From: Schmidtea nova
Taxonomy: Eukaryota
Reading direction: 5' to 3'
Assembly (NCBI GenBank): GCA_044892505.1
Contig: CM097883.1
Coordinates: 172,670,001-172,734,000 of the forward strand
Length of the DNA stretch: 64,000 nucleotides
Part shown: in pieces, positions 32,053-57,023 of the stretch
Numbering within the stretch: position 1 is the stretch's first letter
Layout of the letters: each line of letters begins with the position of its first letter
Translations under genes and position numbers: made by a program
The notes under the pieces: model-generated
Seen by the model: the letters and a program-made list of their open reading frames with translations, nothing else
Told to the model about the DNA's origin: nothing
Databases searched by the model: none

Positions 32053-32191
32053 ATTGGCTAACCAACAACACCGGTTGAGTATAAATACTGAAGTAAAATC
32101 AGTATTTGACAATGTCATTTTTACTGAGTGTGAGTAACAGTAGCAACTTGTAGACAACTTGTGAAGCAGTAAATTGGAATAAAAGGTAATT
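32053..32191 (+). promoter_or_regulatory. Candidate LTR core promoter and first splice donor
   Basis: ATTGG (reverse CCAAT) at 32053, TATAAATA at 32080-32087, TCAGT Inr-like at 32099, AATAAA at 32178-32183, AAG|GTAATT donor-like site at 32186. Confidence 0.5.
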
Positions 32192-33781: not shown

Positions 33782-33941
33782 GGACATTCAGTTGATTGAT
33801 ACCGAGAAAGAATGATTGTCTTAGATATTGAAATATATGTATTGGTGTGTGACGGTCTTGTTTTGTTTTGAGTGCATGAGAACAACCTAAGGATAAGGTA
33901 GAGTTGTTTAATGACGATAGGATGACCGAAAAATCAGACAC

Positions 33942-34541
33942 ATGACATATACTAACATTAATGATATATTTACAGACATGACGGAAACCAAGGGCAGAGA
34001 TTTCAAGCAAGAGGCGCGAGAACACAAGGCGCGCTCACGAGTCCTGGAGAATCGATTAAGGCAGCTGAATGAGGAGCATCAGCGGATTAAGACTACATGG
34101 TTTAACCCAGAGCGGGTTAAGTCCATCCTGCAGGCTAGGTACAGGGCAGAACGAGTAGCTGAGGAACATGCCAGAGAGATTGCAGCCCTGAAATTAGAGT
34201 TGGCGAATTATTTGAAGGTATCGACTCGCGACTTCATTACCGAACAACTACGCCCAGTGATCAGAGCTAGCACCTTTAATCGATGGATAGACACGATAGC
34301 GGTGACCACGAGCACCCAAACAGAGACCGATACCATCGCAACCACGACGATCGAATCAACAATGAAAACTCCAGCCGGTTCGAAACGAACAAAGAGGAGG
34401 AATCGCTTAGGAGCGAAAAAGCGCAGGGAAAGACGCGCATATGCAGATCGCGTAGGAATAGAGGTAGACTTGCTCAGTGGTCTATCTGAGCAAGAACTAC
34501 TAAATGTAATCCGACCCTCTGTATTATTAAACCATAAATAA
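33942..34541 (+). CDS. LTR-encoded ORF-B: coiled coil plus arginine-rich motif (likely start ATG 33978); second copy at 60013-60612
   Basis: 199-codon ORF with KRTKRRNRLGAKKRRERR. AATAAA overlaps the stop and is followed by a GT/T-rich tract. Confidence 0.6.
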   Translation: MTYTNINDIFTDMTETKGRDFKQEAREHKARSRVLENRLRQLNEEHQRIKTTWFNPERVKSILQARYRAERVAEEHAREIAALKLELANYLKVSTRDFITEQLRPVIRASTFNRWIDTIAVTTSTQTETDTIATTTIESTMKTPAGSKRTKRRNRLGAKKRRERRAYADRVGIEVDLLSGLSEQELLNVIRPSVLLNHK

Positions 34542-34932
34542 ATGTATGAAACGAATGACTTGACTTGTTTTGTTTGATTGTGGAATGTTTGAGAATTGAA
34601 TGTAGATAAAACCCGGATTCATTTAAAGCTGCAGATATCTAAAAAGTACATTACCCTAGGACACTAGAAAGGAGCATAAGTGGGACCGAAAGAAAGCCAC
34701 AGACACCTTCTATCGGTAGTGGTGGACCCGTGAATAAACAAGGGAATAGTAGCCGAAAGGTTGCTCACCTGCCTTGTCATTTCACAACGTTGACACAGCA
34801 CCAACATGATGAGTAGTTAGGGATACATCATGGGTGTCAGCGGGGGAATGTTTTTATGTTGGCGAGATCACCCTAACATATAAAATCATAAGGATCTCAG
34901 TTGTCAATCTAACCAACACACCAGCATAAATT

Positions 34933-34950
34933 TGGGGGCTCAGCCGGGAT
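34933..34950 (+). other. Primer-binding site, tRNA-Pro type
   Basis: TGGGGGCTCAGCCGGGAT matches the classical PBS-Pro TGGGGGCTCGTCCGGGAT at 16/18 positions. Starts 6 nt after the LTR end. Confidence 0.85.
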
Positions 34951-35465
34951 TAAATCGATCTTTGTGGGAAAAAGTGAATGCGATATCTGCGGACAGTTTA
35001 GAGCGCCTGAACCGGGATGAATTGAATTTAGCGAGGAAAGGTAAAGTAAATAATAACAGAGGGTTTAAGTGTCCTGAAGCAAGAATGAATCGGGTTGAAA
35101 AATAATAAATAAAAGTATGAGTGTAAAATAATGAGATTGATGAACGTGATGAAAGTATGCATGAGAATGAAAGTATGAGGACGAATGAAGCATGATGACT
35201 AGTATGTGGAATAACAGTATGAAAAGTGATGAAAAGTATGCATGACGTAAGGTAAAAGTATGCTGAAAAATGGGTATGGTATGAGTGCGAGTAACTAACA
35301 ATGATCATGTCGGGGCGACATTCAAGAACACGGGGGGATACGCAAGTAACGACGCAAAACCGAACAACAGAAAGCGAACAGTAGGGCTACCATAGAATAA
35401 GAATGATAAATAATAAAAAAAAAAAAAAAAATCGATAACAAAATTAATGAGAATTCATTCAGGGG

Positions 35466-35924
35466 ATGGAGAACAAAATAAAAGAAATGCAAACGTTTTT
35501 CGAGACAAATAACGAGACAGTGGAGACAATAACGAGAAAGTTAAAACGACTCGAGGTAGGAGGATATCACGAGCCGACAAACAACACAGAAAGAGCTGAA
35601 ATAATGATGAGCATAAGCGAGAATAAGATAACAGTGGATACAGCAACACGATATCAATGGTATAGAGAAAGATTAAACAACCCTGAGATGAATATCGAGT
35701 GCCACAGACTAGAGCAACAGTTAACAACAAAACACGATGAGTGGATAAGAATAACAACAGAACATACGAGACAATATCTGACGTGTTATATCTGTGAAAT
35801 GAACAAAATACAGATAATGTTGTTGCCATGTGGGCATTTTCGATTCTGTAATGACTGTAAAATAAATGAACGATGTCCTATGTGCAACCTTCCCGTATCC
35901 GAAAGAATAACAGTGTACTTGTAA
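35466..35924 (+). CDS. Accessory protein with C-terminal IAP/MDM2-type C3HC4 RING (candidate E3 ligase); no BIR seen
   Basis: CYICEMNKIQIMLLPCGHFRFCNDCKINERCPMCNLPVSERITVYL at the extreme C-terminus. AATAAA at 35929. Confidence 0.8.
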   Translation: MENKIKEMQTFFETNNETVETITRKLKRLEVGGYHEPTNNTERAEIMMSISENKITVDTATRYQWYRERLNNPEMNIECHRLEQQLTTKHDEWIRITTEHTRQYLTCYICEMNKIQIMLLPCGHFRFCNDCKINERCPMCNLPVSERITVYL

Positions 35925-36618: not shown

Positions 36619-37180
36619 CGTGAGCATAGGTCTCATAGTGAGCATAGGTCTCGTCATAAAAATAACATCCTAGTGAGCATAGGTCTCGTCATAAAACATA
36701 ACATCCTAGTGAGCATAGTTCTCGTCAGTGAGCATAGTTCTCGTAGTGAGCAGAGTTCTCATTTAATAAACACAAGACCAGCGAACCTAGTCCTCATCAG
36801 TGAGCGTAGTTCTCATCAATAAACATAGCCATCGTAGTGAGCGTAGTTCTCATCAGGAAACATAATTCCTGTAGTCACCATCAGTGAGCGTAGTTCTCAT
36901 CGGGGAACATAGTCCCCAGGGCAAAGAGTTTCCATCAGTAAGCAAAACCCTCATAACAACCATGTTTTGCCAGTGAGCATAGTTCTCGTTAGTGAGCATA
37001 GTTCTCGTCAGTGAGCATAGTTCTCGTCAGTGAGCATAGTTCTCGTCAGTGAGCATAGTTCTCGTCAGTGAGCATAGTTCTCGTCAGTGAGCATAGTTCT
37101 CGTCAGTGAGCATAGTTCTCGTCATTGAGCATAGTTCTCGTTAGTGAGCATAGTTCTCAGCTGTGAGCATAGTTCTCGTT
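36619..37180 (+). repeat. 19-bp repeat family AGTGAGCATAGTTCTCGTC: about 9 dispersed copies, then 11 tandem copies (36972-37180)
   Basis: Direct counting. Confidence 0.95.
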
Positions 37181-37504
37181 CGAAATAAAATATTGAGTAA
37201 AAGCCCACGAGAAAGACGACGAAGTGAGGCAGATGAGGACTAAATTACGTATAAAACTATCCGGATAGTGAAGATCAACAAGCGATAATAGAGATGAATA
37301 AGTGACAATGAGGATAAATGATGAATAGTGAAAATGAATAGCGAATAATGAGGAATAAGGGTTGAAAGAAACCGAGGTAATAATGAGAGAGTTGAAGGTG
37401 CGCACCTGGGTATTGATAAATGCGAGTAAAGCTGATTATGTGGCCTAATGATGTTAAAGTATGCATACAGAGGAGTAATAAAGTAAAGTGAGTAAGTGGA
37501 GGGT

Positions 37505-37966
37505 GCTGACTGGAAAACCCAGCAGACCATGAGATTCGATGGGAATAAAATGAAACCGGTTTGTTAAGACAGGTAAAGTGGTAAAGACGCTAGCTGGAAA
37601 ACCCAGCAGGTCAATGATAACGATCAGGAAAGATCGAGATAACAAAAGTGAGTAATAATAAAGTGGTGAAATTGAGGACGCTGACTGGAAGACCCAGCAG
37701 GTCAAAAGTGATGATCATCGGAGTAAAGAGCAGGTAAAAGTCGACAGTGAAGAGATAAAGGATGGATAATAAGAGCGCTGACTGAAAAAACCCAGCAGGC
37801 TAATGAAACGACAAGTGAGGTCGAGAATAATGAAACAGAAGTAAAAGGTGAAATTAAAAGCGCTGACTGGAAAACCCAGCAGGCTAATGAGATAATGAGT
37901 GAAGTTGAGAGAAATAAAGTCGAGATAAAAGGTGAGATTAAAGGCGCTGATTGGAAAGCCCAACAG
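37505..37966 (+). repeat. Six regularly spaced copies of a 21-nt hairpin motif GCTGACTGGAAAACCCAGCAG
   Basis: Starts at 37505, 37589, 37680, 37777, 37862 and 37946 (period 84-97 nt). Confidence 0.92.
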
Positions 37967-38531
37967 GCCAACGAGAGATGTCAGTTGAATTAAAGGTGGG
38001 TGGAGATGAGAATTGAAATGAAGTAGTAAACGTAGTGTGAATAGGAAATAAAGCGAATAGTCGAGAAACAGAGTAGTCGACAGATAAGGGGAAATTAGAA
38101 CTCAGAGCCAGAGAAGCCTGAGAAAAGTAAAGGGGATAATAAGAGCGCTGAGCGACAAAGTAATTGGGGAACTGGGGAAAAGTAATTGGTGTATTTGATA
38201 AAGAATAGATAATTGATGCGACTGCATAGATAATTTAAATAGACTTAAAATCAAGGGAAATGGGAAAAATGGGGATCTTCATGAATTATGACTACACCCG
38301 TGAGAGGGACGAGAAACACGATAACGGGGACGTATCGTGTAAGTGATTATTTGTTTTAAGGAAACAAATCAATCAAGCAATTCAAAGCAATCTAGCAGTC
38401 AGAGCAATCAAAGGAAACAAATCAAAGAAGAAGCAAAGCAAAAGCGGAGTAGAAAATCAGTTGAGAATATAAGAAATTGAGGAATAGACAAAATTGAGGG
38501 ACGAGAAACAAGATCAGGTATAATACCAATC

Positions 38532-41500
38532 TTGACAGAAGCAGAAAGAAAAGCAGCAAAAAGAACAAGAACAGGTAACAAGCCTAAGCAACAAAAGAAC
38601 AAACAAGTAGAGATCAGCGATAATTCGAGTAATAAAGAGAATCAAGAAGAAACCCCAGAGGATCCAGAAGTACGAAACGAAGTAGAAACGATAGACAGTG
38701 AACTAGTCAGGGAAAACAGAACAAGAAGCGAATCAAGAGATAACGAAACAGAGAGTAGCGAAGAAGAAGAGTCGAATTCAGAAACAAGTGGTGAACTAGA
38801 AGCAAAGAAAACTAGTACAGTATTCCAAGACAGTGGAATCGGGATGAGTGAACACAGAGAGGATCTGAGAGAAAAATTCAAGGGCGAACCATTCAATGGA
38901 GACGCCAGTAGATTGGATACGTTTCTGAAGGAATTTGGCATATTTGTGGATATATGCGGATGGAGTGCAGAAACGTTGGCAAATCGAATCCCGCTATACT
39001 TGAAAGATAGCGCATTGGATCTGTATATCGAAAAGAGATCGGGAAGTAATCCACCCAGAACGTGGGAAGAGATCAAGGAGTTCTTCCAACAGACGTTTGG
39101 GATAAACAAAGTGCTGAATGAAGCATTCGATGAGTTTTCAGCAAGAAAACAAAGGAGAAACGAGTCAAATGCGGTGTACGCAAGCGAATTAAGAAAGTTG
39201 GCGAAACTGGCGTTCAATAGAGGAAGCCCAGTAGACGAAGAATTGATGACAGCGTTATTCGTACGAGGTCTCAGGAGACCTGACATCAGAGCACAAGTGG
39301 GATGCAAAGGATGTAAAACAGTAGATGAAGCGTTGGAAGCAGCCAACCTATTCGAATTGCATATGGCAATGAATGACATGAGAATTACGGCGGTAATGGG
39401 AAAAACGACAGAAGATGAAGAACAAGGAAAAAGAAACATGAATCAAAGTATTCCCCATTCGCAGAGATTGTTCAAAGAACCGCCAGCGAGGAAGAATAAC
39501 GGATATATCACGGTGAACACGAGTGGAGGAAATAGTTATAATGACAGGCAGAATAGGCAATGTCAGACGTGTGGGAAAAACGGACATTGGCAACAAGATT
39601 GTTTTCAGAATGTAGCCTGCAAACTGTGTGGACAAAAAGGTCACTCAGAGAATCGATGTTATGGGAAAACGTGTTACACATGTGGAAAAACCGGACACAT
39701 GTCAAAAGACTGTAATCAACAGAGAAGTTGGGCAAACAGTGGAAATAGACCGAATTACGGGAATCGACCAAGCTATGGGAATCAAGGTCAACAACGGAAC
39801 AACCCAAACAGCAGTGCAAATGAAGCCAGTATGAAAGAAGCTAAGTTGAGACAGGAGGTATCCAGATTACACGAGATAATCGAAAGCATGGCAAAGGGAA
39901 GCCAACAAGCTGCTCAACCAAAGATAAACATGATCCAGTTAATAGAAGCTGAGGCCGAAAGAGAAAACAGAGAAAGCCAACAGAAACATAATCAAGAATG
40001 GGCTAGAATACGACGAGAAGAAGAACAAGTCAGACAGCAACGATTACAACAGTTAAAAAATGGAAATCCAAGGATCAACATGATGCGAGCAATGATGGAA
40101 GAGAAGCAGCAAGATGAGTCAGACGAGTTAGAAGTTAAAGAGAAAAGAAACGAAGAGCAGAAAAAAGAAGAAGTGAATCAGGAAATAGAAACTGCGGAAC
40201 AGAGTAAAAAAGATGAAGAAACAGAAAAAGAAGCGAATCAAGAAGAGGAAGTGAGAATCAAACAAAGAGGAATGATAGTGATCATGCCGAATGATCATTG
40301 GTTTCGATTCAAATACGATGTAAAAGAAGAAGTGGGAAGATTGTTCAAGAAAGTAAATGAGATGATTCCGGGAGTGATGAAACTGCCCAGAGAAGCCTTC
40401 CTACAAACAGAAGACTTACCGGAAGTAAAGTTAAAGATGACTGATATATGGGAAGATATGGGAGTAACGGAGACGAAAATAAACGTGATGATCATCAGAG
40501 AGGTGGAACCGGAGAAAATCCCACCACCTGTGAAACATCAAACTCGGATCAGTCGAATATTCAAAGGGAAAATAAGACGAAGACGGCTGGAAGAAATAGA
40601 CGAGTTAGAAAAGAGAATGGGAAAAGCTGAAATAACGGGAAACGAGAATGAACTAATACAAGAAGTTAGCAAAAACGAAGCGAGACCAACCGCGCATATT
40701 GGGATGCTGAGACACCCAAGACAAGAGTTGTCAGATGAGGAAGACGACAGCGAAGTTAGCAGTCTGGTAGGAGACATGCTAAAGGAACCAGAAAACGAGG
40801 ATAAAAAGATGGAAGTAGTCGAGACGATAGAAACGATGTCAGTAAAGGAAGAGGAAATTCAGAAGCTGATGGATAACGCGTTGGAAGTAATCCATAACGA
40901 GGAGTTTATCGACGGGAAACGATATAGAAAGTTTATACGAGCAGTATGGCAGACGAAGTATAAAGAGTGGTTACAAGAAAGAGAAGTGAGGGTAATACAA
41001 GAATTCATAGAGAAGTTATTGAAAGAGCCACTGAACGAATACGTAATACAAATATGGATAAACGAGTGTTCACCAAGAATCTGGATAAGGAACCCAATGA
41101 CGGATGGAATTTACCGATGGGTTGAGGACAGATTGGGAAGCTCGTACCAAGACAAATTCATATATTCGGAAAACGGATTGGTGAAAAAAGGAACGCATAT
41201 GATAGACACAGGCATCTGGCCAGGAGAAATAACAACGCTATCTATATGCAACACCAAGAAGGAAGAGAACTTACAGGGAATCGTCAAAGAAGCGAATACG
41301 TGTTATGAGATGAGAATAAAACCTCAGTTGATGGAGGCAAAGGAAAGAATCTTGGCGGAGAATTTGAATACGATGATAGAACAGATCATCCAACAAATCA
41401 AGAAACATCGAAAGGAATTGACGAAAAACGAGTATGAGAATTTGAAACAGTGTATCGAGAACATACGAGATACAAGTCAAACGAGACATTCAAATTTCAA

Positions 41501-44500
41501 AACGGATAAGTTAATCGCCAAGATGGGGAAAGAAATGTTTAAAAGAGGAGAAATATCAGATCTGATGATTACCGTGAGATTGCCGAACGAAGAGACAAGA
41601 CAAATTGAGGTAATACCAGATAGTAAAGTGGGAGAAATAGTAGATGTCATCAATGAGACGATATTACAACGAGAACGAGAAGACGAATTCGAAGATGACA
41701 TTGCGATAAAATACAAAGAACATCTACTGAACGAACGTGACGAAAGACGAGCATATAAAATCGGCATATGGGACAATTTCCAGACAATACATGTCATCAG
41801 AATGGATGATGTGCCAAGAGCAACACCAAGAGATGAGGAAAGGAAAAAGAAACGACAAGAGGACGTTATGCGCAAGTTGAGGCAGATAGTAGAAATTTAT
41901 CGGAACTGGCAGATGAAGCCAGAATGGGAGACAATATTAGGAGAATTGGATCTTAACAGACGACGATTGACGCCAGTAGAGAAGCAATGGGATAACAAAG
42001 AGAAATGTTGGAAAGTGAAAAGAGGCGTGTATGAAGAAGATCCGGAAGGAGAAGACAGATATGAACGGAATACGAAACGGATATGTATGGTAACAAGGAG
42101 GTTATTACCAACGGACTTAGACGGACCAGAAACTGCAGTAATATGGGCAGAATTGGAGAAACAGAAAACGAGTGAATTGATCGAGCTGTTGAGAGGAAAT
42201 ACTCGGGGAAAAAGACAAACAATAAAAGGCTTAGCACAATTCATAATCTCAAATGGAGAAGACATAACGAACTTGAGAAAAGTAACTAAAGCGATAGCAG
42301 AATACAAGAGAGTTAACGAGTGGTGTCCAGAGCAACTAGACGATGTAATAAAAAAGTGGAGAAACAAAGAGTTTGCGGAGGAAACGCCACAAAAAATACA
42401 TTTGAGGATAATGTATCCGAATCAGAGAAAAGAAGAGTTTTGGGTGATGCTAACAGAGAAAGTGAAAAGTATCAAAGAGAAACTGATGTATGAACTACCA
42501 TTCCACCTGCAACATCAAGGACGATCGTTGGATAATAAGTTGGAAATCTGGCTGACACCAGTGCAATTGGATCTAATGAATACGTTAACAGTGGCACAGA
42601 TAGTGGGTCAACCACTGAAGTTTAAAGAAGAAAAGAAAGCGAAAGGAAGCATGAGTACACCAAGTCCGATGAAGTCAACAATGACCCCAGGAATAAGTTC
42701 AGGACAAGCAAGGACAACACCAATAAAAACGAGAGAGAGAACACCGCCAGAAGCGTATGACGTCGATGAGATACTAACAGACAGTGACGAAGCGATAGAA
42801 GAATTAACGAAACTGACTCAAAAACCAACGGCGAATATTTTCGACAGAATAATAGAGATGCCAATAACGTCACCAGCAGAAATCGACGATCAAGGAGTGG
42901 AACAGGAGGTAGTCATAGAAATGGTAAACGATTCGGAAGACGAGCAAGAACAACCACAGTTTACTCAAGAAATGGAAAGATGGTTAGAACAACGAGCAAA
43001 CGAAGGAAGAGATGTTACGGAAGAAACGGGAAGAGCAACGAGATTTGTAGAAACCGGAACTGGAATGGAAAAGCGACCAAGAGGAAGACCAAAGATAGAT
43101 CCAGCAACAACAATCCCAAAGACAAGAGAAGAAAGGAGACAAGAGCAATGGGAGATTTGCTTGAGGAAACTGGATAAAATCGCAGAGATCAGAGGCAAAG
43201 AAGAGAATCAAGTTTGTCAAGGAGAAGAATGGCTCACCAAAACGATAATGGATGTGTTAGCGATAATTGATCCAGAATTAAAGAATCTGTGGCGGATAAA
43301 CGAACCCAGTACAAAGGCAAGGATGCTACACAATGCGATAGCACCAATTATGCCAGAATTGATAAAAGCAAAAACAAAATCGAATCATCTAGATTGGCAA
43401 GGAACCACGATGTTAATAAAAAGGCTACTTAACGGAGCAGAGACGGATAGCAAATATCTAGTAGCAATCTCGTATACGATATACAATTTGCTAACGCTAA
43501 GCCGAGGGAGTCCGAAGTCAAGTCCGATGGGAAGACATATTAAAAATACGGCGATGATTATCGAGAAGGAAATTGAACCATATATCCTCAGGAAAGGAGG
43601 ATGGGAAAAGTTCATAAAAGAGAACCAGACAAAAGAGGGTTCTAACGTGATGAGAAAGAAACTCGAAGGAGTATTGAGGGAAATGGAGAATAGACAAACG
43701 ATGCAAGGAAACGGAAGATCGACGTTGAATTTAAACTCGATAATCATGATGATGTTAGTATGGTTGTTAAGCACAGAAAGTGTAACAACGTTCGAAGTAT
43801 TTGATTGCGATCAAATGAAATTGGGAGAAAAGTACTCATTGAGAGGTACGGAGCAATGCAAAGATGCAACTCCAGTAGAATTGAAAGAGATCAAAAAGGA
43901 ACAATGGTACCACGTGTATCAAGAGGCAGAACTCATAAAGACAATGGTGAATGAATGCAAGGTACAGAAGACGAGATTCGCATTCTATTGTGGGAGAGGA
44001 CATTATTCGGCAATTGTCATGCCAGGAACAGAAAGAGAACCAATCGTGTTACAAGGAGAAGACTGCGAAGCATTATTTAAACATGGAGAAGTAACAACAA
44101 GAGATAAAATCAAGATAAGAGGAAAGCCAGGAATGATGTTGCAGCAGACGTATTATGTAGCAGGACGAATTACGGGAGGAGAAGGGTATTGTCAAGGAGA
44201 AACCTACCCAATATTTGGAGTACCTGCAACCAACCTAGTAGTAATGGATACATATATAGTCGAACTGAAAAGCTACGAAGCATTCTTCGAACCGACCACA
44301 GGAGAAATGAAAACGTTATCCATGTGTAAAATTGACAGAAGCATGTGTCAAACGGGAATGTCAACTTTGGTGTACAAACCGAAAGTGAACGAATGTCAAT
44401 TACAACTGCTACAAGGAGCAAAGTTCGACGAAATTCAAGGAAAAACGTTCCAGGAAGAGGACGATGATGACAAAGCTAGAGCAAAGCATCTCAAAGAGGC

Positions 44501-47500
44501 TTTAGAGAATAAAAGACAATTGAGACCAGATCATAAAGAAAAACGAATAGAGATGAGAACCACACCAACAGTGTTGATAACCACAAATCAGGATGTGGGC
44601 ATGAGATTCATAAAAGGGAAAGCAACCCTTAAGTGCAGTACAACAGTATACGAAACAAACTATCCAGGAATATACGTGTCGAAACAAGAAGTGCCGAATG
44701 CGAAACCCAAAATCGACACAATGGATATCAAGCTACACTTGTATGTGAATAATAAAATGGATTTCTTATTCCATAGAGGACAAGCCTCATTGCAAAAAGT
44801 GTACTATGATCTGATAAACAACGATTGTATACTGAACCGGGAAATATTAAAGACAAAGTTGGCCGTAGCGATTACGAATCCAGATAGCGCGATGCCATTA
44901 TTACCACTGAGAGAAGGACATTTCGGAAGAGTAGTCGGAGAAGCAATGTATGTATACATTTGCGAAAAGACACACGCATCGCTAGCAGCAACAACGCAGT
45001 TGAAACCTGGACAATGTACAAATGAATTAGAAATCGATTATAAAGGAAAAGTACGATATGTTCAACCGGTGACGAGAATCATCAATCCACCAGGGTTTGA
45101 ACCAAATCCATTCAACTGTAGTAATGCGTACGGACCGCTTTATCAGAAGCCAGATGGCAAATGGGTCATGTTCCCAGGAAGAACCGAAGTATTAGCACCA
45201 AGAGAATTTGAGCTAATGCAGTTGTCAAAAGATAGACAGTTCAGTGACGTAGATGTCTCAAACAACGGAATCTATAGTCCAAAAGACTTAGAAGCGGCAA
45301 GGCAGAATATACTATTCCCGGCAAGAAGAGAAGCATTACTGTCAAATATCGTAACGATAACGGGAGGAACGAATTATCGAGAAGGACCGAATTACGAACT
45401 GTTGTTGTCACCGGCACATTTCAAGAAGGCCACAGAAAATATGATGAAGGCAATGTGGGGAAGATTCCTGATATTTGGACAAATGATGGCTGGAATACTG
45501 GGAGTGATATTGATAATACAAATCGTCAGAGTGATAATAACGCAAATGTTAGCGTGTTTCGACATCTACAAGAGAGAAAAGAAAGTGAATTGGAAAATGG
45601 TAGTAGGGTTTTTACCATTCCTTGCGAAAACGATGGTGTTACACGGACACTCAAAAGACATACATCGAATAAAGAGGTTGTTGAAGATACTTGCAAAAAT
45701 GAAAGGAACTAACGAAGATGTCGGAAGGAAATTCAAAAAGATAATGCAAGATGAACAAGCAAGGCGACAACTAAAGAAAGAAAGGAAAGGATTATGGGAA
45801 AGAGTGAGAGGATATAGAACACAAGATGATTCAAGTAATGATGACGATGATGATGACGATCGAGGAGGACAAGCGAATATAAACCAGATTCCACAATACA
45901 CCGAAAAGAGTGCAGTTGAGAATTGGAGATACAGCGCTCCACCTCAGTCAATGTATAACGAACCGATATACAAAGCGAAGCCGAATATGATGCAGATGAT
46001 GCCGATGACAAGTATATACCCGATAATTCCCGAAGGATGCAAAGTAAAACGAGGTAAAAGCGTAGACTCGTTGGAAGACACGCACACGATAGCGGTTATG
46101 TCCACAAATATGGGACCAATCTTAACAACAACCGTAGAAATAAACGGAAGAGAAATTGAAGCTATGATCGATACAGGCGCGAATATTTCGGCAATCGACA
46201 TCAATTATATACCAGAGAAAAACCAAGGAGAAATTGAGAAGACGAATGTTCATGTAATCGCGTGCAGTCAGGAGACAGTAGAAGTAGCCGGAAGATGGTT
46301 TGTAAAAATTAAGCATCGAGGTGCAGAAATCAACACGTACATCGCTGTAATACCATCGCTGAGTGTACCATGTATTATTGGAACTGACCTGATGCCAGAC
46401 CTGTTCAAGGAGATTGTAATTGACCTAGGAGCAATGAAACTAAAAGATAGAACAGGAAAAATCTGCAGAATGAAAGTTAAAGTGGCAAGTGCGGAACAAA
46501 TAGTAGTGCCAGCGAGACATGAAATGATGTGTTATGTCAAGATCGATTCAACAATAAAGGGAGATATGGTATTCGAACCAAGTAAGAAGTTCGAAGCAAA
46601 GAAAGAATTACCAATGGCAAGAGAATTGGTTACGATAAACCAAGAAGGTGAGATACCAATTAATCTGGTAAACTTCGACGAAGAGGACAAGATAATATAC
46701 GAGAATGAGAATTTGGGTAAATTGACACCCATGTCCGAAATCGAGATACCAGACAAGAACGAGAAAAGCAAAGACGAATTACCATGGAAAATCGACAGTG
46801 TGTTGTTAGACGAGCGACAAAAAGAACAGCTACAGAAACTGTTGATGGAATATAAAGATATATTCGCAGCATCAGATTTAGATCTGGGAACATGTGACGT
46901 AACATTACACACGATACCGTTGACGGACGAAACGCCAATAGCATTACGACCATACAAATTGGCAGAAGCTCAAAAAGCAGTGGCAGAAGAAGAGGTACAA
47001 AAGATGTTAGAGGCAGAGGTCATCGAACCTAGTTGCTCACCCTGGCAATTCCCAGTGGTGATGGTGAAAAAGAAAGATGGAACTCAAAGATTCTGTATCG
47101 ATTACAGACGATTAAATGCCGTTACGAAAAGAGACACGTACCCACTGCCAGACATAAATGAAATGTTGTTGACGTTACAAGGAGCAGCTTATTTCACGTC
47201 ACTAGATTTAAAGAGCGGATATTGGCAGATCAAAATGAAAGACGAGGATAAAGAAAAGACAGCATTTACAATCGGACGAGATCTGTACCAATTCAAGAAA
47301 ATGCCGTTTGGGTTAACAAACGCGCCAGCATCATTCCAGAGATGCATGAATTTCGTAACACATGGCATAAAACAATGCATGGTGTATATCGACGATCTAT
47401 TGATCTACTCCGCAACATTCGAAGATCACTTGCAAGACATCAGAAATGTGTTTGTGAAATTGAGACAGTGGAAACTGAAATTAAAGCCGTCAAAGTGCGA

Positions 47501-50500
47501 TTGGGCAAAAGAGAAAGTGACATTCTTAGGTCACATCGTATCAGCAAAAGGAAAAGAACCAGATCCAAGGAATATCGAAAAGGTCAAAGAATGTCCACCA
47601 CCAAAGACAGTGACTCAAATACAAGAATTTTTGGGATTGTGTGGATATTATCGAAAGTTTATCAAGGACTATGCAGGAATATCAAAGCCAATGCAAGAAT
47701 TGGTAAGACAAGATGTGTCGTTTGTATGGGGAGGAGAACAGCAAGCAGCATTTGAGACATTGCGAGACAAGCTGATTACAGCACCAATACTGGTCCATCC
47801 AGATTTTAAGAAGCCATTTTTGTTGGCAACAGATGCAAGTGGATACGCAGCAGGAGCAGTACTAGGCCAATTTGACGAAGAAGGCAAGGAAAGAGTAATC
47901 GGATATTACAGTCGAACCTTCAGGAAGCATGAAAAGAATTACTCAGTCACGGAAAGAGAAGCCTATGCAATAATATTGGCAATCAAGCATTTCAAATACC
48001 TATTGTGGGGTCATGAAATATATATCACGACGGATCATCAACCATTGATATGGTTAGGTCAACACAAAGAATCATCAAGTAGATTGATGCGTTGGGCGAT
48101 GCAGTTACAAGAATACTCACCGTTCATAAAGTTTAAAGCAGGAAAAGCAAATGCAAACGCAGATTGTATGTCAAGATTTACATTCCCAGAATTGGTGAAC
48201 CTAAACGCTCTGAAAATATGTGCATTAATAGCGGAAGATTTGGATTTCAGCGAACTAAGGAAAGATCAACTCGAAGACGAGGAGTTGGGATTGATCAGCA
48301 AGTATTTGAAAGAAAGTGAAATAGAAATATTCGGCAAGAACCAAACGTTGCGCGAACATATGCAGAAATATCAGCATCGATACGTGATAGAAAAAGGATG
48401 GTTATTGATACAGGATGGAGAACGGAGATTGATGTGCTTACCTGCGAATAGGCGAAAGGAAATCATGACTCAATATCATGACGGAAAATTAGGCGGACAT
48501 ATGTCAGCGAAAAAGACAATCGGGAGACTGAGACAAAAGTACTTTTGGCCAACCATGGAAGATGATGTGAAAGAATGGATAAAGAACTGCTTAACCTGTG
48601 CAACAAGAAAGAACGTCGGAACAAAGTGGAAAACACCACTAAAACCAATGCCAATACCTGCAGAACCAATGGCAACAATAGCAATGGATGTAGTTGGACC
48701 ATTGCCGGAAAGTTTGAAGGGAAATCAATACATATTAGTAGTCACGGACTATCTAACAAAGTTCCCAGAAGCGTTCGCAATACCGGATCAAAAAGCGAAA
48801 ACAGTCGCGAGAATATTGGTGGAAGAGATATGCTGCAGATACGGAACACCAAAGAAAATCCTAACGGATCAAGGAACGAATTTCATGAGTGAAATATTAG
48901 ACGAAGTTACGAATTACTTCCGAATTGCGAAATTACGAACATCCCCATACCATCCACAAACGAACGGTCAAACGGAAAGATTCAATGGAACATTAATACG
49001 CATGTTGTCGAATTACGTCAGCAAACACCAGACTGACTGGGACGAGTATATAAACTTGTGTTTAATGGCATACAGAATGTCAATACATGCGGCAACAAAG
49101 CTAAGTCCATTCCAACTGATGTACGGAAGAGATTGCAACTTACCGATCGATTTAGAATACCAACCACCATTATCACAGTATATGGAGGTTGACGATTACG
49201 TTACAAAGTTCAAAGAAAGAATGCAAGAGATCTGGAAAACGGCGGAACTGAACATCAAGTTCTATCAAGAAAGTTATAAGGATCTACATGATCAGAAAAG
49301 GAACGTGAAAGCACATGATTTAAAAGTTGGAGATTGGGTGATAATCGAAACACCAGAGATAATACCCGGTACGGTCAAGAAACTCCAACGACCAGGCAAA
49401 GGGCCATACGAAATAACAACAGTAAACGAAAATAATGTGCGAGTACGATTGGTGAACAATCCATTGGTAAGACCAATATACGTGAATGCATGTCGATGCA
49501 GAAAAATACCCAAGACAGCAACTCTATCACCAGAGAAACGGGTGATGACAAGATCACAGACGGCGAGAATTAATATGTTGCGAGTACAACAAAAGCCGCA
49601 ACCAAGTCTAGAAGACAACCGAAGAGAAGCAATAGACATCAAAGAACTGGCAAAGAGGACCAGAGAAATTATACCAGAATGGAGATGGTGGCTCGATTTC
49701 AATATACTGTCAGAAGTGCGGAAGAATGTAATGGAGTATGCAAAAGACAGAACAGCGCATCCAATTACAAGAACGTTACTGGAAGAAATCCCTCAAACAT
49801 TGAATTTACAAGATAAAGACGGTAACACAGCGTTGCACAATGCAATCAAGCACAGTGGGAACGAAAAAGTGAAAGAGATCGTAGAGATGATACTCGAAGG
49901 TGGAGGAGAAATTGACAAAGTAAATTGGGAAGGAATCACTCCACTCATGATGATGACAATTCACGGAAGAAACGATGAAATAATCAAACTATTCGGAAAC
50001 ACCAGATCGAATTGGTTGACAAAAGATAAAGAGGGACGAACATTCTTGAATCATGCAATTGATAGAGCGAATCACCGAATACTGAAGTATATTACGGAAA
50101 ATGCCACGTGGGAAATCGATGAACTAACTAGAGGATCAATCATGAAACAAGCAATCAGGGTAAAGAACAGTAAAACCTGGAGAATATTGCTAAAGTGGAA
50201 ACGACCAGAAGGAGATTCGTGGGTCATGGATTGTAATGAAGTGTTCATAAAGGGAGAAAATGCGCTACTGAAACATTTATTAGAAGTAACATACGATCCA
50301 AAAACACTTGCAGTATTAATAGCAAGAGATACTCTACGGGTCAGCGAGAACCCAAGAGAATACAAGTTGGAAGACAGAAAGAAAGAACTATTCGGATTAA
50401 TCAAGAAATGGTGTGATAAGCAATGGAATCCGGATATGAGCTTCGAACATTTCTATGACATTCAAAAGCAGCACAAAGAAATAAGCAAGAGATATAAAGA

Positions 50501-51977
50501 GCTGGTGGAAGCATTGAAGTATGGACAATTCTTCAGACAAGCAGTGTATCAAGACCAACGAATGAAACAGATGCAAACGCGAATAAGAAGCAAAGTAGTG
50601 TTGTTCAATGCAAAAGCCGAGTACCAAGAGAGATTAGACGCAATCGTAGCAAAAGCACAAGAAAGATTATCGGAATTCAAGGAGAATAAAAACTCGTTGG
50701 AGATACTAGGAGCGATTACAGAAAAAGTGCACAGATATGCACAAGGGGATTATAACGAGAGCGACATAGAAACGATCAAAAATCAAATGCCAGTGGCATT
50801 CCTATTATCAAAGGATGGGAGATTGCCGATACACTGGGCATTACGCCGAAAGAAAGAAAACGAAGTGCTAGAAATAACGAAAGCAATGGTCAAGTGCGAA
50901 GCAGACATGAATACGGTTGACGATAATGGAGACACAATCATGATAATCGCAGCAAGAAAGAAGACGAAATTGAAAGTACTAAACGAGTTATACGAAGTAG
51001 GAGCAAAAATCGAAGGGAAAAATGGAAAGAATAATTCCATCATAGATATCGCAATACAGTGGAACAACTTCGAGATGATCAAGTTCATAAAGTCCATCAA
51101 GAAACAGGGTGACATCGAATATCTGGCGAATAACGTAAAGAATTTCAGTCTAACTGTAATGATACACGACATAGAGAAAACGAGAGCATTACTAACATGG
51201 GTGAATCCGATCACCAAGGAACCAGCGTTCAAGATCAATGACCATATGGAACAGAATCAGAATTGGTGTATCAGAAGCGCGTTACTAAGACACAAAAAGC
51301 CAGGGATAGTAGAAGAATTCCTGAAGAGAAGGGATTTGAAATTTACGAACAATCCAAAAGAACAGGAACGAACGGGAAGATGGAAAGACTTGTTCAGAAA
51401 ATATGTGAATGAGTGGGCAAATGCCAAAGAAAAGATCAAGCAAAGTAGACTAGAGGACATAGAACCATCCAAAGATATGGAAATACGGGAATTCGAGTCT
51501 AGCACACTCGCGGTTCAAGCGTATGAAAGATTGATTAAAGAAATTAATGTCGAGGACGACATTTTCAAAGGACCAGGGGGTGGTTACAGAGACTTCGACA
51601 ACAAAAGTAACAACGAAAAGAACAACGAAGACATTGACAACAAAAGAACAGAGGATAATGAAAAAGAAAGACAAGAAGAACCAAAGCCAACGGAAAAAGA
51701 CAAGAAAGGGGAAGCCGAAGAACGAGAAAACAATGGAACAAAAGACGAACGTACAAACTATGGAAAACGAACAGGAAGTCTACTTTTGAGACCGGAAATG
51801 TTGTGTATTGCGATATTGATAACAATCATCGGACAAGGAGAAGCCAAGAAACAATACGTCACGCTAGAGATAATCAGAGGAAACGAAGTATACGAAAGAA
51901 TATGCTGGAAAGAAAACCTGAAGAAAAACGACACGCTGAAGTGTATATTGTCAGATCTGAAGCGAGACGTCATCTAA
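38532..51977 (+). CDS. 4,481-codon Gag-(accessory)-Env-Pol-ankyrin polyprotein
   Basis: Gag capsid-like about 38886-39357; three CCHC knuckles 39561-39713; AT-hook 43071-43094; signal peptide about 43725-43790; Cys-rich glycoprotein 43791-45460; TM 45464-45550; DTG 46170; RT YIDD 47385; RNase H TDAS about 47830; IN HHCC 48474-48600 and DDE core to about 48985; ankyrin repeats 49800-50100 and 50811-51095. First ATG is at 38844. Confidence 0.95.
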   Translation: MTEAERKAAKRTRTGNKPKQQKNKQVEISDNSSNKENQEETPEDPEVRNEVETIDSELVRENRTRSESRDNETESSEEEESNSETSGELEAKKTSTVFQDSGIGMSEHREDLREKFKGEPFNGDASRLDTFLKEFGIFVDICGWSAETLANRIPLYLKDSALDLYIEKRSGSNPPRTWEEIKEFFQQTFGINKVLNEAFDEFSARKQRRNESNAVYASELRKLAKLAFNRGSPVDEELMTALFVRGLRRPDIRAQVGCKGCKTVDEALEAANLFELHMAMNDMRITAVMGKTTEDEEQGKRNMNQSIPHSQRLFKEPPARKNNGYITVNTSGGNSYNDRQNRQCQTCGKNGHWQQDCFQNVACKLCGQKGHSENRCYGKTCYTCGKTGHMSKDCNQQRSWANSGNRPNYGNRPSYGNQGQQRNNPNSSANEASMKEAKLRQEVSRLHEIIESMAKGSQQAAQPKINMIQLIEAEAERENRESQQKHNQEWARIRREEEQVRQQRLQQLKNGNPRINMMRAMMEEKQQDESDELEVKEKRNEEQKKEEVNQEIETAEQSKKDEETEKEANQEEEVRIKQRGMIVIMPNDHWFRFKYDVKEEVGRLFKKVNEMIPGVMKLPREAFLQTEDLPEVKLKMTDIWEDMGVTETKINVMIIREVEPEKIPPPVKHQTRISRIFKGKIRRRRLEEIDELEKRMGKAEITGNENELIQEVSKNEARPTAHIGMLRHPRQELSDEEDDSEVSSLVGDMLKEPENEDKKMEVVETIETMSVKEEEIQKLMDNALEVIHNEEFIDGKRYRKFIRAVWQTKYKEWLQEREVRVIQEFIEKLLKEPLNEYVIQIWINECSPRIWIRNPMTDGIYRWVEDRLGSSYQDKFIYSENGLVKKGTHMIDTGIWPGEITTLSICNTKKEENLQGIVKEANTCYEMRIKPQLMEAKERILAENLNTMIEQIIQQIKKHRKELTKNEYENLKQCIENIRDTSQTRHSNFKTDKLIAKMGKEMFKRGEISDLMITVRLPNEETRQIEVIPDSKVGEIVDVINETILQREREDEFEDDIAIKYKEHLLNERDERRAYKIGIWDNFQTIHVIRMDDVPRATPRDEERKKKRQEDVMRKLRQIVEIYRNWQMKPEWETILGELDLNRRRLTPVEKQWDNKEKCWKVKRGVYEEDPEGEDRYERNTKRICMVTRRLLPTDLDGPETAVIWAELEKQKTSELIELLRGNTRGKRQTIKGLAQFIISNGEDITNLRKVTKAIAEYKRVNEWCPEQLDDVIKKWRNKEFAEETPQKIHLRIMYPNQRKEEFWVMLTEKVKSIKEKLMYELPFHLQHQGRSLDNKLEIWLTPVQLDLMNTLTVAQIVGQPLKFKEEKKAKGSMSTPSPMKSTMTPGISSGQARTTPIKTRERTPPEAYDVDEILTDSDEAIEELTKLTQKPTANIFDRIIEMPITSPAEIDDQGVEQEVVIEMVNDSEDEQEQPQFTQEMERWLEQRANEGRDVTEETGRATRFVETGTGMEKRPRGRPKIDPATTIPKTREERRQEQWEICLRKLDKIAEIRGKEENQVCQGEEWLTKTIMDVLAIIDPELKNLWRINEPSTKARMLHNAIAPIMPELIKAKTKSNHLDWQGTTMLIKRLLNGAETDSKYLVAISYTIYNLLTLSRGSPKSSPMGRHIKNTAMIIEKEIEPYILRKGGWEKFIKENQTKEGSNVMRKKLEGVLREMENRQTMQGNGRSTLNLNSIIMMMLVWLLSTESVTTFEVFDCDQMKLGEKYSLRGTEQCKDATPVELKEIKKEQWYHVYQEAELIKTMVNECKVQKTRFAFYCGRGHYSAIVMPGTEREPIVLQGEDCEALFKHGEVTTRDKIKIRGKPGMMLQQTYYVAGRITGGEGYCQGETYPIFGVPATNLVVMDTYIVELKSYEAFFEPTTGEMKTLSMCKIDRSMCQTGMSTLVYKPKVNECQLQLLQGAKFDEIQGKTFQEEDDDDKARAKHLKEALENKRQLRPDHKEKRIEMRTTPTVLITTNQDVGMRFIKGKATLKCSTTVYETNYPGIYVSKQEVPNAKPKIDTMDIKLHLYVNNKMDFLFHRGQASLQKVYYDLINNDCILNREILKTKLAVAITNPDSAMPLLPLREGHFGRVVGEAMYVYICEKTHASLAATTQLKPGQCTNELEIDYKGKVRYVQPVTRIINPPGFEPNPFNCSNAYGPLYQKPDGKWVMFPGRTEVLAPREFELMQLSKDRQFSDVDVSNNGIYSPKDLEAARQNILFPARREALLSNIVTITGGTNYREGPNYELLLSPAHFKKATENMMKAMWGRFLIFGQMMAGILGVILIIQIVRVIITQMLACFDIYKREKKVNWKMVVGFLPFLAKTMVLHGHSKDIHRIKRLLKILAKMKGTNEDVGRKFKKIMQDEQARRQLKKERKGLWERVRGYRTQDDSSNDDDDDDDRGGQANINQIPQYTEKSAVENWRYSAPPQSMYNEPIYKAKPNMMQMMPMTSIYPIIPEGCKVKRGKSVDSLEDTHTIAVMSTNMGPILTTTVEINGREIEAMIDTGANISAIDINYIPEKNQGEIEKTNVHVIACSQETVEVAGRWFVKIKHRGAEINTYIAVIPSLSVPCIIGTDLMPDLFKEIVIDLGAMKLKDRTGKICRMKVKVASAEQIVVPARHEMMCYVKIDSTIKGDMVFEPSKKFEAKKELPMARELVTINQEGEIPINLVNFDEEDKIIYENENLGKLTPMSEIEIPDKNEKSKDELPWKIDSVLLDERQKEQLQKLLMEYKDIFAASDLDLGTCDVTLHTIPLTDETPIALRPYKLAEAQKAVAEEEVQKMLEAEVIEPSCSPWQFPVVMVKKKDGTQRFCIDYRRLNAVTKRDTYPLPDINEMLLTLQGAAYFTSLDLKSGYWQIKMKDEDKEKTAFTIGRDLYQFKKMPFGLTNAPASFQRCMNFVTHGIKQCMVYIDDLLIYSATFEDHLQDIRNVFVKLRQWKLKLKPSKCDWAKEKVTFLGHIVSAKGKEPDPRNIEKVKECPPPKTVTQIQEFLGLCGYYRKFIKDYAGISKPMQELVRQDVSFVWGGEQQAAFETLRDKLITAPILVHPDFKKPFLLATDASGYAAGAVLGQFDEEGKERVIGYYSRTFRKHEKNYSVTEREAYAIILAIKHFKYLLWGHEIYITTDHQPLIWLGQHKESSSRLMRWAMQLQEYSPFIKFKAGKANANADCMSRFTFPELVNLNALKICALIAEDLDFSELRKDQLEDEELGLISKYLKESEIEIFGKNQTLREHMQKYQHRYVIEKGWLLIQDGERRLMCLPANRRKEIMTQYHDGKLGGHMSAKKTIGRLRQKYFWPTMEDDVKEWIKNCLTCATRKNVGTKWKTPLKPMPIPAEPMATIAMDVVGPLPESLKGNQYILVVTDYLTKFPEAFAIPDQKAKTVARILVEEICCRYGTPKKILTDQGTNFMSEILDEVTNYFRIAKLRTSPYHPQTNGQTERFNGTLIRMLSNYVSKHQTDWDEYINLCLMAYRMSIHAATKLSPFQLMYGRDCNLPIDLEYQPPLSQYMEVDDYVTKFKERMQEIWKTAELNIKFYQESYKDLHDQKRNVKAHDLKVGDWVIIETPEIIPGTVKKLQRPGKGPYEITTVNENNVRVRLVNNPLVRPIYVNACRCRKIPKTATLSPEKRVMTRSQTARINMLRVQQKPQPSLEDNRREAIDIKELAKRTREIIPEWRWWLDFNILSEVRKNVMEYAKDRTAHPITRTLLEEIPQTLNLQDKDGNTALHNAIKHSGNEKVKEIVEMILEGGGEIDKVNWEGITPLMMMTIHGRNDEIIKLFGNTRSNWLTKDKEGRTFLNHAIDRANHRILKYITENATWEIDELTRGSIMKQAIRVKNSKTWRILLKWKRPEGDSWVMDCNEVFIKGENALLKHLLEVTYDPKTLAVLIARDTLRVSENPREYKLEDRKKELFGLIKKWCDKQWNPDMSFEHFYDIQKQHKEISKRYKELVEALKYGQFFRQAVYQDQRMKQMQTRIRSKVVLFNAKAEYQERLDAIVAKAQERLSEFKENKNSLEILGAITEKVHRYAQGDYNESDIETIKNQMPVAFLLSKDGRLPIHWALRRKKENEVLEITKAMVKCEADMNTVDDNGDTIMIIAARKKTKLKVLNELYEVGAKIEGKNGKNNSIIDIAIQWNNFEMIKFIKSIKKQGDIEYLANNVKNFSLTVMIHDIEKTRALLTWVNPITKEPAFKINDHMEQNQNWCIRSALLRHKKPGIVEEFLKRRDLKFTNNPKEQERTGRWKDLFRKYVNEWANAKEKIKQSRLEDIEPSKDMEIREFESSTLAVQAYERLIKEINVEDDIFKGPGGGYRDFDNKSNNEKNNEDIDNKRTEDNEKERQEEPKPTEKDKKGEAEERENNGTKDERTNYGKRTGSLLLRPEMLCIAILITIIGQGEAKKQYVTLEIIRGNEVYERICWKENLKKNDTLKCILSDLKRDVI

Positions 51978-51986
51978 ATCAAAGGA

Positions 51987-53723
51987 TTGGAGAAAGAAAA
52001 GTCATACATAATATGCGCAATAAAGCAGAGAGGAGAACCAAAAGCACCTCAAGTAACTGCATGTCAATTATATAAAGCAACAGAAGCGCTGAAAATACAG
52101 AAATGGATTGAGAAAAGAAGCGAAGAGACAACGAGAAGAACAGAAGTGGAACCAGAGAAAGGGAAGAATCAAACCGAAGCAGAAGAGGGAATCAGAAACC
52201 GAACAGAGAAAGAAAGAATAACCAAAAATCCAGCGGGCAAATTAACATTCCAACCAGAATTGATATGTGTAGCATTAATATTAATCCTCATTAAGAGAAT
52301 CATGGAGGACATAGATATCAGCGTGATGACGTTAGTAAACATCCAAGATCAACGAACAACGAATGGAAGATGTTGGGGACGAAACAATGAGGTAATTGGA
52401 ATCAGCGAAACAAGAGAAATAGTAGAGGCGGAGACAAATGAGGAAATAGAGATAACTGAAATGGAGGCAGATAGAAAATGTGAACTATGTCTCATGGAAA
52501 AAGCAGCAAACGGAAACAGACCAGGAACAAGCGAGTGTAAAGTGTTCCAAGCAAAGGAGATAATTGAGTTCCCAAAAAGAAAGAAACAAGATCAAGAAAT
52601 GATTGCGAATGAAGTAGTAACAGTAGAGATGAAAAACATTGGTCGGAGAACAATTGGGATGTGTTGGAGAAAATACATCGGAGTATCGACCAACAACATA
52701 ATACCGCAATGTAGAACGAGAGAACGAGGAATCCCGTTTCAACTAAATGGATTCGAAGTCGGACAAGCATATGAAATTTGCGTAATCCGGAGAATAAGAG
52801 AAATAATACAAAGAAGCCTGGAGTGCAAACTGTACAAGACGCCAGAGCAAATTAACGGAACGAGAACGATTGAAATGGGAAGAAGTCGACAGAGGAAAAG
52901 AAAGTCAAGAAGAATCACGACAACCAACAGTCAAGGAACTCAACAGACAACAACAGAAGGGACGACAATAGAAAACGAACCGGAATCAACAACGTTGATA
53001 ATATGGAAGATCCATAAAAAAGTCCTAGAAATCTGTTGGACATTAATGCCAAACAGTATGGGAAAGTCCCCACGAAACTGTCAAAAGACATCAAATGATA
53101 AAGGAGAAATAATTGAAGTGGAAATGAGGAAGTTGAAAACAAACGCAGAATACGAAGTGTGTGCAATCGAAGAAGTAGATGCACAAGGAAATCCACAAGA
53201 AAGGTGCGAAACCTATTACACGCCAAGGAACATAACGATAAAAAGGGGAACCCACAAGTTAGTATTCCGAGAATTGAGTCAGAAAAGAGAACAAACAGAG
53301 ACGGAGGAAATACTACAAAATCAACAAGAAAGATGGGAACCCGAGAAAGTGATCGAAGAAGTCAGACAGAGACAACAACAATATGAACAATGGGAAGCAG
53401 AATGGAAAGGTCAATATGGCGTGATGACAAACCAAAGTGAAACTCCGAAGATGAGCATTGGGAAAACAATAATGGGATTAATCAGCATGGGAGTATTCAT
53501 AGGGTGTATACCACTGATAACGATCATGATAGTATGTTGGAGATATGGCATGAGAAATAAGACCATAGCAGTAAAATGGCCAGACGTAAAGGTCACGAAC
53601 TACAACATAAAACTACCAAAAGCAGTACGAGAAGAGCTGAGAAGACGATCAAAACATGAAGAGATGTGGGTACAGATCGAGGACGAGGAACTGTACGAAG
53701 GAAAACCAGTGGTGATTGTATAA
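51987..53723 (+). CDS. Membrane protein with FN3-like Cys-containing repeats; in frame with the polyprotein across a single TAA
   Basis: Repeated CW...L..L....Y.IC.I....C..Y.T pattern. Hydrophobic segments LICVALILILI and IMGLISMGVFIGCIPLITIMIVCW. 51987-38532 is a multiple of 3. Confidence 0.7.
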   Translation: MEKEKSYIICAIKQRGEPKAPQVTACQLYKATEALKIQKWIEKRSEETTRRTEVEPEKGKNQTEAEEGIRNRTEKERITKNPAGKLTFQPELICVALILILIKRIMEDIDISVMTLVNIQDQRTTNGRCWGRNNEVIGISETREIVEAETNEEIEITEMEADRKCELCLMEKAANGNRPGTSECKVFQAKEIIEFPKRKKQDQEMIANEVVTVEMKNIGRRTIGMCWRKYIGVSTNNIIPQCRTRERGIPFQLNGFEVGQAYEICVIRRIREIIQRSLECKLYKTPEQINGTRTIEMGRSRQRKRKSRRITTTNSQGTQQTTTEGTTIENEPESTTLIIWKIHKKVLEICWTLMPNSMGKSPRNCQKTSNDKGEIIEVEMRKLKTNAEYEVCAIEEVDAQGNPQERCETYYTPRNITIKRGTHKLVFRELSQKREQTETEEILQNQQERWEPEKVIEEVRQRQQQYEQWEAEWKGQYGVMTNQSETPKMSIGKTIMGLISMGVFIGCIPLITIMIVCWRYGMRNKTIAVKWPDVKVTNYNIKLPKAVREELRRRSKHEEMWVQIEDEELYEGKPVVIV

Positions 53724-54198: not shown

Positions 54199-54287
54199 TG
54201 AATAAGCGGAAAATTGTGTAAATACGTGTAAATAAAGAACCAGAAAAATCAAAAATATGGGGAAATTGATGTAAATATTGTTGTAGA

Positions 54288-55700: not shown

Positions 55701-55789
55701 TCAGAGTGAACGACCCTGTAAATAAAGTGTAAAAATCGACGACAACCATAAACGTATAGTATAACCAGTGTAAATTTGTAAATTGCAGA

Positions 55790-56950: not shown

Positions 56951-57023
56951 AAAGAGGCGAAAAATCCGTGTGTAAAAATGTACAAATCGATGTAACAGGT
57001 ATTAATCAGTAGAATAATCAGAA

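Follow-up and report, generated by a model that had tools for sequence, protein, structure and literature searches.

Planarian Burro (GYPSM1) elements, introduced in 2019 as the first case of env lying in frame between gag and pol, carry an env that matches the fusion glycoproteins of mononegaviruses (PMC6431247), and BURRO1 is expressed (PMC8532177, PMC13465017), its RNA rising when the piRNA pathway is knocked down (PMC8532177). Nematodes, bryozoans and flatworms are the phyla for which GAG-ENV-POL errantiviruses with a gB-type Env are catalogued, and six of the entries come from Schmidtea mediterranea (PMC13524379). Here we examine a 64,000-nt stretch of the Schmidtea nova genome (hereinafter the window; GenBank assembly GCA_044892505.1, contig CM097883.1, positions 172,670,001 to 172,734,000; all features are on the forward strand unless stated), in which positions 31680-60997 hold a 29.3-kb Ty3/gypsy long terminal repeat (LTR) retrotransposon with an envelope gene inside its polyprotein frame. 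It is near certain that this gene is a Burro-type class III env. An earlier note, made from the letters of this DNA alone, had implied that an in-frame env between gag and pol is new; the order is already published for Burro and catalogued for GAG-ENV-POL errantiviruses (PMC6431247, PMC13524379), and the window copy is a further young, high-copy example of it. What our analysis adds is a putative topology with four crossings of the endoplasmic reticulum (ER) membrane, a Pol that may be tethered to Env and a candidate Bcl-2 anchor.

The described Burro elements are ~30 kb long, with multi-kb LTRs, one frame of ~4,900-5,100 aa, a Gag with three CCHC knuckles, the order ubiquitin-like, BCL2-like, env, protease, and ankyrin, TRAF/MATH and RING cargo (PMC6431247). 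The window element resembles them in most of these features, its ubiquitin-like parts being weak candidates: it has a family frame of 4,959 codons in its 29.3 kb, env stands between a BCL2-like domain and the protease, and ankyrin and TRAF/MATH domains are present. TRAF/MATH forms a separate downstream gene in the window element, whereas it lies inside ORF1 in the S. mediterranea Burro and upstream in that of D. tigrina, and the BIR and dUTPase-like domains of Burro are not detected here (PMC6431247). Our Pfam scan, which covered the longer frames, found no BIR domain but only a RING finger at 35451-35924. Between protease and reverse transcriptase (RT), four sequences have in common a 140-aa block, conserved at 25-29%, that gave no dUTPase match. 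The Burro section of that source mentions neither a signal peptide nor topology nor a second membrane protein (PMC6431247).

Smed_errantivirus_1-6 share with the window element the GAG-ENV-POL order, multiple copies and a gB-type Env flanked by a signal and a helix or by two helices, and their spans of 14.5-18 kb resemble the 14.9-kb frame of the window family; the ectodomains of Smed_errantivirus_5 and 6 are the most similar to the window Env, as judged by eye only (PMC13524379). They have no primer site listed, whereas the window element has an exact tRNA-Pro site, and the words 'polyprotein', 'in-frame', 'fused' and 'Burro' do not occur in the main text of that source (PMC13524379).

The main frame of the window element is free of stops from 38481 to 51977 (4,498 codons stop to stop, first ATG at 38844), and the chance of an open run of this length is ~1e-140 given the local base composition. 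Read from the ATG, the polyprotein has 4,377 aa in the window copy (38844-51977). The stop codon at 51975-51977 is private to this copy: 3' regions were compared for 20 of 39 env-selected genome copies, and all 19 that align at this point are open, so the family frame has 4,959 codons and continues to 53720. In Pfam terms the frame runs Retrotrans_gag, CCHC knuckles, Monjiviricetes_fusion, protease, RT, RNase H, integrase and ankyrin, with the RING and TRAF genes outside it. Between 39700 and 46900 there are 18 slippery heptamers; reading from gag to pol in the window element requires no frameshift. The claim of a gag-env-pro-pol order with neither stop nor frameshift stands, and copies across the genome keep this order. 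The placement of env between Gag and protease is right as to frame and order, but ~950 residues of cargo behind the flank of the Gag motifs (ubiquitin-like candidates, then a Bcl-2-like domain) separate the knuckles from Env, so that Env follows the Bcl-2-like domain and not Gag itself. None of the late motifs PTAP, PPxY and YPxL occurs in the main frame.

The motifs quoted in the earlier note all fall in this one frame (SIIMMMLVWLLSTESVT at 43737, FEVFDC at 43791, KYSL at 43830, HLYVNNKMDFL at 44736 and EGHFGRVVGEAMYVYIC at 44913), as do the internal signal-like segment and the single membrane helix that it described; its residue numbers (aa about 1754-2340) count from the upstream stop and not from the ATG. 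The Env segment, whose ectodomain spans 43791-45455, matches Pfam PF24664 (Monjiviricetes_fusion) with E 3.3e-74 and 250 bits, where 27 is the cut-off. Among 1.84 billion representatives searched there are 947 relatives at E <=0.001, and a 112-sequence Env profile run against PDB found herpes gB in 33 of 33 matches and nothing else (best E 0.003). The AlphaFold model of the ectodomain (pLDDT, a predicted local distance difference test score, 88; predicted template modelling score, pTM, 0.73) has long beta hairpins and a 48-residue central helix, and its top match in Foldseek is chuvirus-like G among viral models (E 4e-38, template modelling score, TM, up to 0.72) and gB when solved structures are searched (E 3e-14, TM ~0.4). 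Both structural comparisons that had been suggested, with chuvirus G and with gB, thus gave matches, and the identification of a chuvirus-like class III envelope glycoprotein is borne out. Chuvirus (Jingchuvirales) G, other Monjiviricetes glycoproteins and herpesvirus gB share the class III fold and conserved cysteines with the window Env, which itself has the fold with its conserved disulfide cysteines; these glycoproteins differ in being stand-alone genes with N-terminal signals, and show 10-21% identity to the window Env in structural alignments. The Env cysteines are also common to stand-alone Envs at 20-40% identity. The ectodomain as a single sequence found no match in PDB, and a word-based homolog search with Env found none. 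It contains one N-glycan sequon and no furin site of the form R-x-K/R-R. The window Env is a class III fusogen by fold, and its fusion activity is putative.

Signals and membrane helices were called on an approximate hydrophobicity/insertion scale with our own weighting. Directly ahead of the ectodomain lies an internal signal-peptide-like segment (43737-43790), recognized by its h-region and its -1/-3 residues, with a predicted cut at V-T-T / F-E-V-F-D-C; the h-region is uncharged and the -1 and -3 residues are small in 39/39 copies of the window family. We surveyed 151 proteins, namely the window and the best 150 of the 947 relatives. The h-region before the xxxYDC-type mature start is readable in 86 of them, being N-terminal in 66, internal in 17 (the window included) and in between in 3, and the internal signals share the register and the small -1/-3 residues of the 66 N-terminal ones. 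Nine of the 16 internal-signal relatives have a protease motif downstream in frame, five of these also with a CCHC knuckle upstream, and relatives at 29-40% identity show the same order as the window element. Past the ectodomain comes the Env membrane helix (45483-45539), then a basic patch and a further helix (45585-45641), which is weakly hydrophobic, is set among basic residues and, with a score of 5.0, is called non-spanning. The signal and the Env helix are the only two membrane-like segments ahead of Pol, consistent with the proposal that a signal plus one helix would return Pol to the cytosol.

The segment before the signal resembles Bcl-2 (43191-43620), its GGW motif standing 65 residues ahead of the predicted cut. 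A five-sequence profile of this pre-signal domain matches Bcl-xL at E 3.6e-4, and a divergent genome copy (L094) gives Pfam Bcl-2 with E 4.4e-6, which falls short of the curated cut-off; the window segment alone had no Pfam match, and an Atlas search with the region gave no usable match. GGW occurs 49-79 residues ahead of the cut in 4/16 internal-signal relatives and 3/3 divergent genome copies. Cellular Bcl-2 proteins carry a C-terminal tail anchor, and at this spacing the signal stands where that anchor would be.

A second membrane protein is predicted after integrase and ankyrin. It would begin with a second internal signal-like segment (51777-51833) and continue, in the part of the family frame that lies beyond the private stop (51978-53723), through Cys-containing repeats to a membrane helix at 53478-53534 and a basic tail. 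The order signal, helix, Pol, signal, helix recurs in all three relatives that extend past integrase (P0004, P0006 and P0013) among 11 polyproteins scanned. Of three divergent genome copies, which have 31-36% identity in the main stretch of the alignment, two are mutually related. Each of the three has a single frame holding knuckles, GGW, signal, Env, helix, protease and RT; the second signal is present in 3/3 and the final helix in 2/3. The repeats of the second ectodomain may be fibronectin type III (FN3)-like, which we offer as a lead only: the Atlas score is 0.85-0.87, profile matches are weak (Tie2, E 0.075), and the model of one repeat is all beta at pLDDT 53. A word-based homolog search with this protein found none, and second ectodomains of different lineages showed no significant mutual match except L095 with L096. 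The signal-like segments at 52248 and 51777 are alike (25% over 46 aa).

A rough first look across the genome yields equal counts of candidates for gag (790), env (782) and RT (814), or ~800 copies. We analysed 39 copies selected by env and, to avoid selecting on env, 39 others selected by RT, 15 of which were already in the env set, leaving 24. Among the env-selected copies, 19/39 have neither stop nor frameshift over the aligned gag-to-RNase H range (two aligned over part only), and no lesion is common to two of the 39. Among the RT-selected copies, 22/24 keep >95% of env, and the other two stop aligning inside or after env; gag joined directly to protease, as a clean loss of env would leave it, is seen in 0/24. 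Ten of the 24 are colinear without lesion, and two lesion positions recur in this set, one of them in two neighbouring copies. The ratio of nonsynonymous to synonymous polymorphism (pN/pS), computed pairwise against the window copy, is 0.022 for the Env ectodomain in the env-selected set and 0.026 in the RT-selected set, compared with 0.008 and 0.009 for the Env membrane part, 0.017 and 0.018 for RT, and ~0.10 for the linker. Counting unique variants in the env-selected set gives 0.05 for Env, 0.05 for its membrane part, 0.04 for RT and 0.19-0.21 for linkers. Env is under purifying selection and is as constrained as RT.

We read the element as encoding an ER-threaded Gag-Env-Pol polyprotein in which Env is a class III fusogen placed between the Gag cargo and the protease, a reading to which we assign a probability of roughly 0.7. 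The topology would be flavivirus-like with four crossings, Pol forming the cytoplasmic tail of Env. Gag and the ubiquitin-like and Bcl-2-like parts would be made in the cytosol until the internal signal opens the translocon and host signal peptidase cuts after V-T-T; the signal would stay on the piece upstream of the cut as a short anchor at its C-terminus, where cellular Bcl-2 proteins have their tail anchor. Env would then fold in the lumen, its single helix stopping transfer, and protease, RT, RNase H, integrase and ankyrin would be made in the cytosol as its tail. Env trimers may cluster the protease, which would then cut itself free. The signal after integrase and ankyrin would send the second ectodomain, which may serve attachment, into the lumen, where the last helix anchors it. 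Cleavage ahead of each ectodomain would fall to host signal peptidase and cleavage in the cytosol to the protease of the element, and the product would be an enveloped particle that buds into the secretory pathway and could pass between cells. The signal-peptidase processing and the near-equimolar Gag:Env:Pol put forward in the earlier note are putative. A first membrane segment deep in the chain is no obstacle in principle, as coronavirus nsp3 and ryanodine receptors illustrate.

Pol of retroviruses and LTR elements is usually packaged as Gag-Pol. If signal peptidase cuts before Env, Pol is separated from Gag and could not be packaged in this form; another route would be needed, the obvious one being the Env tail, which would carry Pol to the particle. 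Conservation of the second signal and of the membrane protein behind integrase supports the Env-tail route and suggests a two-protein entry system. Polyproteins of flaviviruses, hepaciviruses and rubella virus have internal signals that host signal peptidase cuts and that stay behind as the anchor of the upstream protein, a likeness to the window polyprotein in function only, with no homology. Atlas virus of hookworm likewise has Gag, Pol and Env in one stop-free LTR-element polyprotein, but it is a belpaovirus with a class II Env at the C-terminus, and its Pol does not sit on an Env tail (PMC9094657). The four-crossing topology was not found in the Burro and errantivirus literature searched, although key papers and supplements beyond that search may describe signals or topology. 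More tentatively, and with the odds somewhat against it, Burro-type elements as a whole may be infectious retroviruses built on the flavivirus plan: a ~5,000-residue chain crossing the ER membrane four times, Pol packaged and activated as the cytoplasmic tail of a class III fusogen instead of as Gag-Pol, an Env signal that also serves a captured Bcl-2 as tail anchor, and a fibronectin-type second surface protein after integrase for attachment.

Several points weigh against the ER-threaded reading. The mechanism is predicted from sequence and models. The signal and helix calls depend on an approximate scale with our own weighting, and the h-region of the window signal is short (~10 residues, approximate insertion free energy +1.0). 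The helix following the Env membrane helix scores 2.1-3.8 in 5/14 homologs, in which a second crossing is possible, and an extra hydrophobic segment at 52248-52304 in the second protein breaks simple alternation. With GGW missing before the signal in 12/16 internal-signal homologs, the Bcl-2 anchor can at most be a lineage feature. The fusion-loop tips predicted for Env are only modestly hydrophobic. The pairwise pN/pS values are non-independent, since the window lineage is common to all pairs. What low pN/pS shows is a need for Env to fold; it does not show fusion, because a misfolded Env could drag its own Pol tail to degradation.

The main rival, which we consider unlikely, keeps the continuous frame but derives most Env or Env-Pol from spliced or internally started RNA. 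The signal would then act close to an N-terminus, and a different RNA would supply an excess of Gag. Cer1 offers a precedent, having no stop between gag and pol and yet making spliced RNA (PMC10309623). The accessory genes behind the main frame, TRAF among them, would need some such route of expression, and methionines do lie shortly upstream of the window signal; in several internal-signal homologs, however, the 32 residues ahead of the cut, h-region excepted, contain no methionine. Synonymous variation shows no dip at the signal (13/33 sites; mean 0.46) and none at the linker between helix and protease. A scan for acceptors gave nothing pyrimidine-rich near the signal, but its sensitivity is low, as it picked up none ahead of the accessory genes. 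The lack of clean env-lacking copies among those selected by RT also counts against this rival.

Less probable still, Env may be retained because it tethers Pol to the membrane, scaffolds its budding or plays a host-side role, and may no longer mediate entry into other cells. With Pol as its predicted tail, Env would have to fold even for copying inside one cell, and the missing furin site and solitary sequon fit such a role, as does a secondary account by which Burro1 is beneficial to host stem cells (PMC13465017). Against it stand the constraint on the Env ectodomain, equal to that on RT, the cysteines held in common with stand-alone Envs, and the retention of a second surface-type protein in the same chain. 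The possibilities of a chuvirus gene inserted by chance, an artefact of assembly or a relic in decay, for which only the chuvirus glycoproteins as best structural matches of Env would speak, are refuted by the same frame in hundreds of copies under strong purifying selection and by the shared order in relatives at 29-40% identity, and no chuvirus polymerase or nucleoprotein family appeared among the window frames scanned with Pfam. We also considered an Anakin-type BEL/Pao element with a chuvirus G and rejected it; the backbone is gypsy-type by Pfam, with no BEL-specific families listed.

The remaining parts of the element are as follows. The two LTRs, at 31680-34926 and 57751-60997, were defined by comparison with each other; each is 3,247 bp long with TG...CA ends, and the AGTA target duplication stands on both sides (31676-31679 before the 5' LTR and directly after the 3' LTR). 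They differ by 1 mismatch, so the insertion is very young. A primer-binding site 6 nt past the 5' LTR (34933-34950) is an exact 18/18-nt complement of the 3' end of host tRNA-Pro(TGG) plus CCA, and a short AGGGGA run, which falls short of a clean polypurine tract, lies ~10 nt ahead of the 3' LTR. Genes for tRNA-Pro(TGG) lie in tandem at 308-bp spacing from G000:C1:459609706 onward (L070), and the primer-end pattern has 1,106 exact matches genome-wide. The LTR interior holds two long frames (33047-33781 and 33921-34541, with 3' copies at 59118 and 59992) that match no Pfam family.

Gag consists of a capsid-like Retrotrans_gag region and three CCHC knuckles (38991-39720; PF03732, E 2.4e-6; zf-CCHC, E 1.4e-9). 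In the cargo behind it, two weak ubiquitin-like candidates (41568-41828 and 42375-42620) resemble ISG15 and ubiquilin at E 0.1-1.3, with a best match of E 0.029; Pfam has no ubiquitin/SUMO-like match before the Bcl-2 domain, and the profile search gave ubiquitin-like proteins at only E 0.03-1.3. The Pfam scan finds protease, RT, RNase H and integrase in this order with gypsy-type domains: an aspartyl protease (DTG) at 46128-46400 (RVP, E 5.1e-9), RT (YIDD) with RNase H at 47064-48116 (RVT_1, E 5.6e-37; RT_RNaseH, E 3.2e-38) and the integrase zinc finger and core at 48441-48956. Two ankyrin-repeat blocks follow at 49791-51092 (Ank_2, E 2.4e-20). One relative (P0004) has up to three aspartyl-protease matches in a single polyprotein. 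Within RT, synonymous variation reaches its minimum at 47244-47363 (7/38 sites; mean 0.46, standard deviation 0.08), the lowest of 78 bins over 39 copies, and this stretch is possibly an RNA signal. Words resembling K/R-I-N-M, a pattern devised in this analysis, recur at 39921, 40071, 40476, 40695, 42078, 45978, 48213 and 49566, with one between the Env tail and the protease and none from 42078 to the signal.

The 3.9-kb leader before gag contains a 19-nt tandem array and an 84-91-nt repeat at 36660-37960. The RING-finger frame at 35451-35924 (zf-C3HC4_3, E 2.9e-9) is presumably of the IAP type. Downstream of the main frame, a TRAF-like gene with RING, zinc fingers and MATH (54270-55700; MATH_2, E 3.6e-27) is followed in the frame listing by a coiled-coil-like frame (55760-56950) and a small protein with a signal and a membrane helix (57018-57548).

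Other mobile elements share the window, all on the minus strand. A separate small Ty3/gypsy element at 5105-9677 is bounded by 104-bp direct repeats, and its pol carries one stop. Adjoining the 5' LTR, 23313-24341 and 29411-30667 hold a DDE_Tnp_1_7 transposase frame and a fragment of DNA polymerase B, which we take to be Polinton-like.

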